From the NCBI GenBank assembly GCA_029945195.1, contig GCA_029945195.1_4117.1: DNA of 64,000 bases, one strand, 5' to 3'. The number at the start of each line of letters is the position of its first letter. The stretch's first letter is position 1. This document shows, piece by piece, positions 23,576 to 24,502 of the stretch. Position numbers and translations under genes: made by a program. A model generated the notes under the pieces. It saw only the letters and a list, made by a program, of their open reading frames with translations, was not told the DNA's origin and did not search any database. This DNA comes from a phage.

Positions 23576-24502
23576 TTGAAACAAGCGAAAAAAGCACTGA
23601 AAACTAAGACTACTTATGGTGTTCTAGTTTGCACAGTACTTGTCGCTGCGATTGGATTTTATGGTTTTTCTCAAAATGATCGTGTATCATCATCGGACGA
23701 AAGTCAGGTACACAATTTAAAACCACAAGTTACGCAAATTCAAAAGCAGGAATTACCAAAGGTAGAAATATCAAAGGATGTTCCACGCGGCGAGAAGCAT
23801 TATACGGTTCAACCTGGTGATAGTTATTATTCTATTGCTAAAAAGTTTAAACCTAAAAATGTACAACTTGAAGAGTATGTTATTTTGTTGAAAAATATCA
23901 ATTTAAATGCTACTCTTCATACTTCTCAGGGTATCTTTATCCCAACAAAAGAGGATTTGAAGAACGTATTGTTACCAGATGTGACTGTACTGTTTGATTA
24001 TAATGATCCAGAAATTGTCAATCACATCAAAGAAGCTGAAGGTTCAATTGAATTTCAGTCCAAGAACAAACGCCGTTTACTTGGTGGGAAAGTCGGAGTT
24101 CCTTTCCACAATTCTAAATTTCATCCCTACAAGGACATGAAAGGTAATTATACAATAGGTTATGGGCATTATTTGGGTAGAAAAGAATCTGATGCGATTA
24201 AGTACAGAAACGGTATTACCAAAGCTCAAGCCAATAAACTTTTAATGCAAGATATGAAAAGAACATATAATGACTTTTTATTATTGATGCAGAAAAAAGA
24301 AGCAGTAAATCTGACCAAAGAACAACAACGTATTCTTTATGAAATGTCCTATACAATGGGTGTTGATAAATTAGCAACGTTTAATAAACTTTGGAAAAGT
24401 GTGAAAAATGATAACCCTAAGAAATTTAAAAAAGAAATTATGAATTCCTTATGGTATCGTCAAGTTACAAACCGAGCAGATTTGTTGTTAAGTTCACTCT
24501 AA
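23576..24502 (+). CDS. Membrane-anchored LysM + T4-lysozyme-like (GH24-like) protein; probable TTG start
   Basis: AGGAGG SD 5 nt before TTG 23576; N-terminal TM (VLVCTVLVAAIGFYGF); LysM-like YTVQPGDSYYSIAKKF; GNYTIGYGH...NGITKAQANKLL...SLWYRQVTNRADLL parallels T4 lysozyme. Confidence 0.6.
   Translation: MKQAKKALKTKTTYGVLVCTVLVAAIGFYGFSQNDRVSSSDESQVHNLKPQVTQIQKQELPKVEISKDVPRGEKHYTVQPGDSYYSIAKKFKPKNVQLEEYVILLKNINLNATLHTSQGIFIPTKEDLKNVLLPDVTVLFDYNDPEIVNHIKEAEGSIEFQSKNKRRLLGGKVGVPFHNSKFHPYKDMKGNYTIGYGHYLGRKESDAIKYRNGITKAQANKLLMQDMKRTYNDFLLLMQKKEAVNLTKEQQRILYEMSYTMGVDKLATFNKLWKSVKNDNPKKFKKEIMNSLWYRQVTNRADLLLSSL

Follow-up and report, generated by a model that had tools for sequence, protein, structure and literature searches.

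This locus raises the question of whether a phage lysozyme that carries its own membrane anchor has kept the catalytic residues of its fold, and what role such an enzyme would play. The window (the whole stretch of DNA analysed, 64,000 nucleotides) encodes on its + strand, at 23576..24502 including the stop codon, a protein of 308 amino acids. An earlier sequence-only reading took it for a LysM and T4-lysozyme-like membrane protein with a histidine in place of the catalytic glutamate. That the reading frame is a genuine gene, as proposed there, is borne out by annotation: the same boundaries are found in 121Q gp532, G17_00390 and phAPEC6 gp293, and the product matches PHROG 15410 over its full length (E=3e-173). 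The surrounding 2 kb are 96-99.9% identical to the Asteriusvirus jumbo coliphages ECO103 4-12-1, G17, SP27, slurp01, phAPEC6, 121Q and PBECO4, and we assign the window to an Asteriusvirus jumbo coliphage of the 121Q/PBECO4/G17 group. The protein itself shares ~99.7% identity with 121Q gp532 and is the ortholog of 121Q gp532, phAPEC6 gp293, CBB_187, GAP32 gp180 and the RaK2 'e' gene product, the latter being gp506 in the naming of Buttimer et al. 2017.

The window lysozyme belongs to the predicted endolysin family of Rak2-like jumbo phages, which has already been described. Buttimer et al. 2017 presented CBB_187 as a predicted endolysin with the homologs 121Q gp532, GAP32 gp180 and RaK2 gp506, predicted in it a transmembrane domain at the N-terminus, then a LysM-like module, with a lysozyme at the C-terminus, likened its anchor to signal arrest as in P1 Lyz and phiKMV gp45, and reported that it is toxic when induced, with data not shown there (PMC5259590). 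Their account of the family gives the same architecture and differs in nothing essential; it does not discuss the catalytic site and its E-x31-D insert, nor the non-ATG start and the leader described below. The three modules named by the sequence-only reading, a signal-anchor, a LysM module and a GH24 domain, were all recovered here, and this anchor-LysM-GH24 order is kept in 69 full-length homologs, a large share of which lie on contigs of ~350 kb.

The muramidase domain of the GH24/T4-lysozyme fold spans residues 140-308 (23993..24499). It matches the Phage_lysozyme profile PF00959 with 45.1 bits against a gathering score of 22.3 (E=1.5e-11), hhalign pairs it with T4 lysozyme (T4L) at a probability of 97.7%, and T4L is the top structural match for the predicted model, consistent with a T4-lysozyme fold. 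The segment from D187 to T193 (KDMKGNYT, 24134..24154) aligns with T4L and supplies the Asp20 and Thr26 equivalents, which had been identified correctly. The catalytic glutamate had not. The histidine assigned to the Glu11 position is H178, nine residues before D187; it fits that position only when no gap is allowed, and it varies among H, Y, R, K, S and Q in the family alignment. By contrast, the 40 orthologs of that alignment all keep E155 and G156 (codons at 24038..24043), together with D187, T193 and the motif TIGYGH. When T4L and two 121Q paralogs were added with MAFFT, E155-G156 fell in one invariant column with T4L E11-G12, its homolog in the catalytic site. Between the two halves of the site lies a conserved 23-residue insert, residues 157-179 (SIEFQSKNKRRLLGGKVGVPFHN, 24044..24112), which includes H178 and in which Q161, R166, L168 and G171 are invariant. 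The triad spacing is thus E-x31-D-x5-T instead of the canonical E-x8-D-x5-T. Because this insert separates E155 from D187, an ungapped reading missed the glutamate, and the histidine at the Glu11 position is an alignment artefact.

The same placement emerges from the comparison with relatives of other spacings. BLASTP against the 162-aa gp586 (E=5e-26 over residues 143-302) aligns IKEAEGSIEFQ with IKEFEGTIAYQ and opens a single 10-residue gap; about ten residues of the insert are missing from paralogs of the x21 class, which keep the EG pair. Relatives were collected by searching 1.8 billion representative proteins with HMMER, aligned through the E155 region and scanned for motif spacing. EG is retained at every E-to-D spacing encountered, namely 8, 21, 23, 30 and 31 residues. 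The E-x8-D class contains T4L, P0155 and P1 Lyz (in which Cys replaces the Asp); the E-x21-D and E-x23-D class takes in many lysozymes that are 147-174 aa long, among them the gp586 type; and the E-x30-D and E-x31-D class contains the family of the window lysozyme together with P0075-P0086. The x21 and x31 classes, for neither of which a sequence search found a solved structure, share the motif EG[ST]xxxQ, and an x21-class enzyme, the gp586 ortholog LysUE1 of phage UE-S1, is lytic in vitro (PMC12805682). The model places E155 at the end of helix 145-155 (pLDDT 85-95), the position that E11 has in helix A of T4L, and residues 157-180 are predicted to form extra short beta strands (pLDDT 85-94), with strand or coil and no helix at 163-174. 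Moreover, the PHROG endolysin and tail-lysozyme profiles begin to match at residues 127 and 147, upstream of E155.

Local alignments obtained with Pfam, with phmmer against the PDB and with hhalign against T4L alone begin at residues 180-183 and leave the glutamate uncovered, which reflects a limit of these methods and not an absent Glu. An alternative placement, given by low-confidence hhalign runs (low threshold or global) against T4L, R21 and P1 Lyz, sets T4L E11 opposite V173; it was rejected, position 173 being variable and lying in a segment that is strand or coil in the model and missing from the x21 paralogs. A PDB profile search with an alignment (A2) that already contained T4L was circular and uninformative. 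On the combined alignments, E155 is assigned as the catalytic glutamate and the triad E155/D187/T193 is complete. As to the variant active site or non-catalytic domain proposed earlier, the gapped alignment places a glutamate at the catalytic position, the very outcome that had been named beforehand as speaking against it. We conclude that the protein is very probably an exported and catalytically competent muramidase. Treating it as a pseudo-enzyme would be a mistake, given what by alignment is an ordinary catalytic triad behind a 23-residue insert, and this correction for a much-annotated jumbo-phage "lysozyme" is the practical value of the result. In addition, the E-x21-D and E-x31-D subclasses of GH24 would be a form of the T4-lysozyme N-lobe that is not yet characterised structurally.

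How the enzyme reaches its substrate is suggested by its N-terminal half. A hydrophobicity scan detects a single transmembrane (TM) segment, residues 13-31 (TYGVLVCTVLVAAIGFYGF, 23612..23668), preceded by the N-terminus MKQAKKALKTKTT, which carries five lysines (K2, K5, K6, K9 and K11) and no acidic residue. Under the positive-inside rule, a positively charged tail stays in the cytoplasm, giving an N-in, C-out orientation, so this distribution of charges ahead of one hydrophobic segment points to such a topology. The protein would then be a Sec-inserted bitopic protein whose linker, LysM module and lysozyme domain reside in the periplasm. As a crude estimate, with checked reference sequences, the apparent insertion free energy of the segment is ~+1.1 kcal/mol (family median ~0, range -2.5 to +5); the same scan gives 0.5-0.8 kcal/mol for P1 Lyz and R21, which serve as SAR references, and -2.5 kcal/mol for the lambda Rz anchor. 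Gly, Ala, Ser and Thr make up 37% of the segment, which equals the family median, versus 53-63% in the two SAR references.

Behind the anchor, residues 32-72 (23669..23791) form a low-complexity linker rich in Gln, Pro and Ser, modelled at pLDDT <50 and variable in both length and sequence across the family. It leads to a LysM-type module, predicted to bind peptidoglycan, at residues 73-123 (23792..23944), a region that shows both a profile match to LysM (PF01476) and the beta-alpha-alpha-beta fold. Linker and LysM together put ~110 residues between the anchor and the GH24 domain, and the periplasmic part contains no Cys. Ahead of the TM segment, members of the wider family have between 2 and 95 residues. 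The relatives P0081-P0083 have a conserved domain of 80-95 residues there, cytoplasmic by prediction, and the N-terminus of P0079 resembles a cleavable signal peptide. This diversity suggests that export, and not releasability, is the conserved trait.

Translation starts at a TTG codon (23576..23578) behind the Shine-Dalgarno sequence AGGAGG (23566..23571). The start proposed by the sequence-only reading thereby stands, as orthologs use the homologous codon behind the same Shine-Dalgarno sequence, although the spacer counts 4 nt and not the 5 nt given there. The homologous start codon is used in WPEC3, Hallingskeid, pEa_SNUABM_49, RaK2 and 17 IMG/VR loci, and AGGAG is kept in all orthologous lysozyme loci. 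A longer N-terminus is ruled out because many orthologs have an in-frame stop only 3-5 codons upstream. Of the 17 IMG/VR loci, 16 start with TTG or GTG, and ATG is found only in RaK2; this prevalence of a non-ATG start among the orthologous loci is a new observation.

The 168-nt gap upstream of the gene holds a leader element (23470..23575, + strand) that is kept across phage genera whose proteins are 50-60% identical. Comparison across lineages suggests three hairpins. The core of hairpin B (23491-23520), TGTAGAAAGTCC...GGCTTTTACA in the window and TGTAGAAAGTCC...GRCTTTGTGCA in most other lineages, is nearly invariant. Hairpin A lies directly upstream of it, and across 15 sequences A and B together are 93% paired, against 26-51% in slid controls, with compensatory changes at five pairs, a number reached by 1 of 500 shuffles. 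Hairpin C (~23513-23541) can be formed in every lineage; its loop and 3' arm are complementary to the Shine-Dalgarno region and can alternatively pair with the Shine-Dalgarno sequence or the start region. The leader core occurs once in the window and in one copy per genome, only in 12 IMG/VR contigs that also carry a lysozyme ortholog, and the leader has no match in Rfam. A conserved, single-copy leader upstream of this lysozyme gene is, to the same extent as the start codon, a new observation.

Conservation and covariation indicate that the leader is gene-specific and probably structured. Its function as a translational control element is possible. Pairing of each leader with its own translation-initiation region reaches -14.5 kcal/mol, compared with -10.9 for cross-lineage combinations. 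Within a subgroup of eight sequences, hairpin C shows weak covariation, matched by 165 of 500 shuffles, and the helix between anti-SD and Shine-Dalgarno sequence shows modest covariation, matched by 20 of 500. A switch between hairpin C and the anti-SD pairing is our hypothesis for how the element might work, and leader and conserved non-ATG start together may keep synthesis of a toxic product low or set its timing. Sequestration of the Shine-Dalgarno sequence as a special feature of the lysozyme gene was rejected, as its predicted pairing probability of 0.77 ranks only 8th among the 16 strong-SD genes of the window. As for promoters, 13 sigma-70-like matches were found upstream of the gene where 13 were expected by chance, and no T4 late-promoter motif (TATAAATA) occurs anywhere in the window.

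The neighbourhood offers one clear lysis component. An i-spanin gene with an N-terminal TM segment (14369..14743, + strand) is followed by an overlapping o-spanin gene with the lipobox ISGC (14740..15048, + strand). The pair matches the Rz-like spanin PHROG 1152 (E=6.6e-29) and, weakly, a LysC/Rz1-like Pfam family, and the 121Q annotation agrees. It lies 8.5-9.2 kb upstream of the lysozyme gene, close to the 9 kb announced earlier, and presumably performs the outer-membrane step of the same lysis pathway. Immediately downstream, starting 16 nt past the lysozyme stop codon and in the same direction, is the gene for an HPF/RaiA-type ribosome hibernation factor (24519..24851, + strand; PF02482, 41 bits vs a cut-off of 23.7; annotated as such in G17), with a terminator-like hairpin at its 3' side (~24860-24886). 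In Asteriusvirus, the two genes are probably transcribed as a unit. A different, unannotated gene follows the RaK2 ortholog, so the HPF neighbour may not be universal. Large myoviruses scatter their lysis genes, and an adjacent pinholin or releasin is no strict requirement for SAR endolysins. None of the neighbouring small membrane proteins matched a holin, a pinholin or DUF2730, and no releasin was recognised among them, which, together with spanins 8.5 kb away, counts against the reading as a lysis endolysin.

Taken together, these results are best explained, with a probability of roughly 0.6, by a jumbo-phage endolysin candidate that is exported, tethered and endowed with a complete triad. 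The lysozyme would be a Sec-exported bitopic protein of the inner membrane, with a cytoplasmic N-terminus and a periplasmic part made of the linker (~40 residues), LysM and the GH24 muramidase, and it would accumulate at the membrane during infection, pre-positioned for its task. When the cycle ends and the membrane has been de-energised or made permeable, the enzyme would degrade the sacculus, and the spanin pair (14369-15048) would then disrupt the outer membrane. Until that moment, the tether and the weak TTG start, possibly with the structured leader, may hold its activity in check, and the enzyme would either be released from the membrane or act while tethered. We rate a function as a lysis endolysin slightly above an even chance; the spanin pair in the window and the absence of the orthologs from the phAPEC6 and CBB virion proteomes count in favour of the endolysin reading.

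Release in the manner of SAR endolysins is less probable than the lytic function itself. The proposal of a SAR-type endolysin with a variant active site holds in part: an exported, tethered, SAR-like endolysin is plausible and had been proposed earlier (PMC5259590), whereas the variant site falls with the invariance of E155. The expected order, an N-terminal TM domain on a muralytic enzyme, is present (segment 13-31 ahead of GH24, with Sec export as the likely route), but no pinholin or releasin gene was recognised among the small membrane proteins close by. The TM domains of SAR proteins consist mainly of weakly hydrophobic residues, with Gly, Ala, Ser and Thr making up about half or more, and follow 2-3 basic residues; in Mu gp22, the lysines K6 and K7 make release depend on the releasin (PMC9239132). 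For the window lysozyme, the marginal hydrophobicity of the segment (+1.1 vs 0.5-0.8 kcal/mol in P1 Lyz and R21) speaks for SAR behaviour. The content of 37% G/A/S/T, the five N-terminal lysines, the linker with LysM and the 80-95-residue domain of the relatives argue against simple release, and we regard SAR-type release as doubtful.

Whether the tethered enzyme performs lysis at all depends in part on the other lysozymes of the genome. 121Q encodes two more GH24 proteins within its baseplate module, gp586 and gp587, paralogs of the window lysozyme with 36% and 31% identity. gp586 is soluble and was not detected in virions, and its UE-S1 ortholog LysUE1 is lytic in vitro with EDTA (PMC12805682); gp587 is the virion tail lysozyme, whose C-terminal domain is the GH24 paralog. 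The gp586-type enzyme could be the main endolysin. The window lysozyme would in that case be an accessory, permanently tethered periplasmic muramidase that cuts or remodels peptidoglycan near the inner membrane, as an auxiliary at lysis or earlier in infection, while a gp586-type lysozyme and a holin bring about lysis. Several features fit: the existence of a second, small soluble GH24 enzyme with an active ortholog, the cytoplasmic N-terminal domain of the relatives, which could hardly cross a membrane, the Lys-rich N-terminus and long linker of the window lysozyme itself, the position of its gene among small non-structural genes beside the HPF gene and not in a lysis cassette, and the gene-specific leader and non-ATG start, which point to tight, low-level expression. 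However, the gp586-type gene sits in the baseplate module next to the paralogous tail lysozyme, so gp586 may itself act in assembly or entry; the toxicity of induced CBB_187 is what an exported endolysin would be expected to cause; and no specific non-lytic role is directly supported. We consider an accessory role possible but on balance unlikely. Less likely still is a permanently tethered LysM-muramidase on a long linker whose synthesis is timed by a dedicated cis-regulatory RNA, the 5' leader, in place of a holin, and translated from a non-ATG start; if true, such a leader-timed enzyme would be a new form of lysis-enzyme control in jumbo phages and its leader a new phage RNA element.

Two further readings have very little in their favour. 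An inactive or altered GH24 domain, serving only for peptidoglycan binding or as a scaffold, with SpmX as precedent, could draw on the local alignments to T4L that begin at 180-183 and on the low-confidence pairing of T4L E11 with the variable V173. It is very improbable in view of the invariant E155-G156, D187 and T193, of the x21 paralogs that keep EG yet lack the segment required by the alternative alignment, of the modelled helix that ends at E155 as in T4L, with strand or coil at 163-174, of profile matches that begin upstream of E155 and of the toxicity reported for the CBB ortholog. At least as improbable is a virion-associated lysin that pierces the cell wall at infection. The protein does share homology with the tail lysozyme, in the C-terminal domain of the latter (PHROG 13211, E=2.7e-20). 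However, tail proteins are assembled in the cytoplasm and would not be expected to carry an N-terminal signal-anchor, and none of the structural modules includes the gene. Moreover, the virion proteomes of phAPEC6 (PMC7247149) and CBB contain the 887-aa tail lysozyme, but gp293 and its CBB ortholog were not detected in them. In the part seen of the paper on PA5oct, a distant relative with RNA-seq data, no ortholog is mentioned.

Returning to the exported endolysin candidate, its control by tethering, release, low TTG/GTG translation and the leader would show how giant myoviruses organise lysis, and the family might yield a self-exporting enzyme for enzybiotic design. To our knowledge, LysM-bearing membrane-anchored muramidases are few in phages of Gram-negative hosts, and this family is among them. 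With the SAR endolysins P1 Lyz, R21 of phage 21, Mu gp22 and phiKMV gp45, the window lysozyme shares a GH24-type muramidase, a marginally hydrophobic N-terminal TM segment and, as its topology suggests, Sec export before lysis. It differs from them in its E-x31-D spacing (E-x8-D in the SAR enzymes), in five N-terminal lysines where 2-3 basic residues are typical and in having no recognisable pinholin or releasin gene adjoining it, and from P1 Lyz and R21 in a lower content of G/A/S/T (37% vs 53-63%). The tethered form of P1 Lyz is inactivated by a disulfide cage, and R21 is inactive until its SAR helix refolds into the enzyme body; neither mechanism can apply to the window lysozyme, since linker and LysM separate the anchor from the enzyme and its periplasmic part has no Cys.

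Unlike the window lysozyme, T4 lysozyme, the GH24 product of gene e, is soluble, cytoplasmic and holin-dependent, lacks both TM segment and LysM, and has the E-x8-D spacing. A further comparison is with the paralogs of the same genome: gp586/LysUE1 and the C-terminal domain of gp587 share with the window lysozyme EG[ST]xxxQ...KF.xYxD and part of the insert, but they are E-x21-D enzymes with an insert 10 residues shorter, and they carry neither TM segment nor LysM. Among jumbo phages of Pseudomonas, KZ144 and EL188 are similarly modular, with an N-terminal peptidoglycan-binding domain, a rare arrangement for Gram-negative hosts; their binding domain is however PG_binding_1 and not LysM, their enzyme a lytic transglycosylase, and they have no membrane anchor. 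Finally, the bacterial protein SpmX of Caulobacter and Asticcacaulis, a polar scaffold, has C-terminal TM segments and a GH24 domain that has been co-opted; it is relevant here only as a non-lytic precedent.

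The lysozyme gene (window 23576-24502, plus strand) is preceded by a probably structured 5' leader that spans window 23470-23575, with a core at 23491-23520. The leader is conserved and single-copy, lying at orthologous positions in the comparison loci L006, L008 and L010-L024, and it occurs only in Rak2-like contigs that carry a lysozyme ortholog. Comparison of the orthologous loci showed covariation in hairpin A, the upstream stem, and an almost invariant core in hairpin B. The Shine-Dalgarno region is predicted to serve as an alternative pairing partner of the downstream hairpin C. 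A search of Rfam returned no match for the leader. The start codon that follows (window 23576-23578) is TTG or GTG in 16 of the 17 orthologous loci (L009-L025), which cover several genera, RaK2 being the only one with ATG. This retention of a non-ATG start suggests that weak initiation of lysozyme translation is under selection.

Downstream, a phage-encoded HPF/RaiA-type ribosome hibernation factor (window 24519-24851; PF02482, 41 bits) starts 16 nt 3' of the lysozyme gene and is followed by a hairpin terminator at approximately 24860-24886. Given this short gap and the position of the terminator, the two genes are probably co-transcribed. In RaK2, another, unannotated gene lies 3' of the lysozyme ortholog, and the HPF/RaiA-type neighbor may therefore not be universal among lysozyme orthologs.

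On the upstream side, the neighboring gene (window 22997-23407) encodes a 136-aa protein annotated only as hypothetical, which bears two HxT/S-type motifs, HVSIV and HITVG; its match to 2H-SAK, a family of 2H phosphoesterases, stays below the threshold (E=1.4e-5). Located 2.2 kb 5' of the lysozyme gene, a 74-aa protein of PHROG 22328, function unknown (window 21156-21380), is predicted to contain two TM segments, and its C-terminus is acidic; its topology is holin-like, yet its C-terminal charge is atypical, and it matched no holin family. Directly 5' of the spanin pair (14369-14743 and 14740-15048), a 139-aa ORF (window 13896-14315) matched phage acyl-carrier-protein families in its C-terminal region (PHROG 5934, E=1.2e-7). 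The T4 late-promoter octamer TATAAATA is absent from both strands of window 1-64000, where dinucleotide shuffles gave an expected count of 10.4 +/- 3.1; ATAAATA has been proposed as the late motif for the phage group of CBB (PMC5259590).

Outside the window, two further GH24 paralogs, gp586 and gp587 of 121Q, adjoin each other in the baseplate module (30346-33534 of the 121Q locus L004), both with E-x21-D spacing of the catalytic residues. For neither this class nor E-x31-D, that of the lysozyme studied here, was a solved structure detectable by sequence. Distant relatives in the representative library (P0075-P0086) keep the TM, LysM and GH24 (x30/31) architecture with a variable N-terminus: a probable cleavable signal peptide in P0079, a short anchor, and, in P0081-P0083, a conserved cytoplasmic domain of 80-95 residues ahead of the TM segment.
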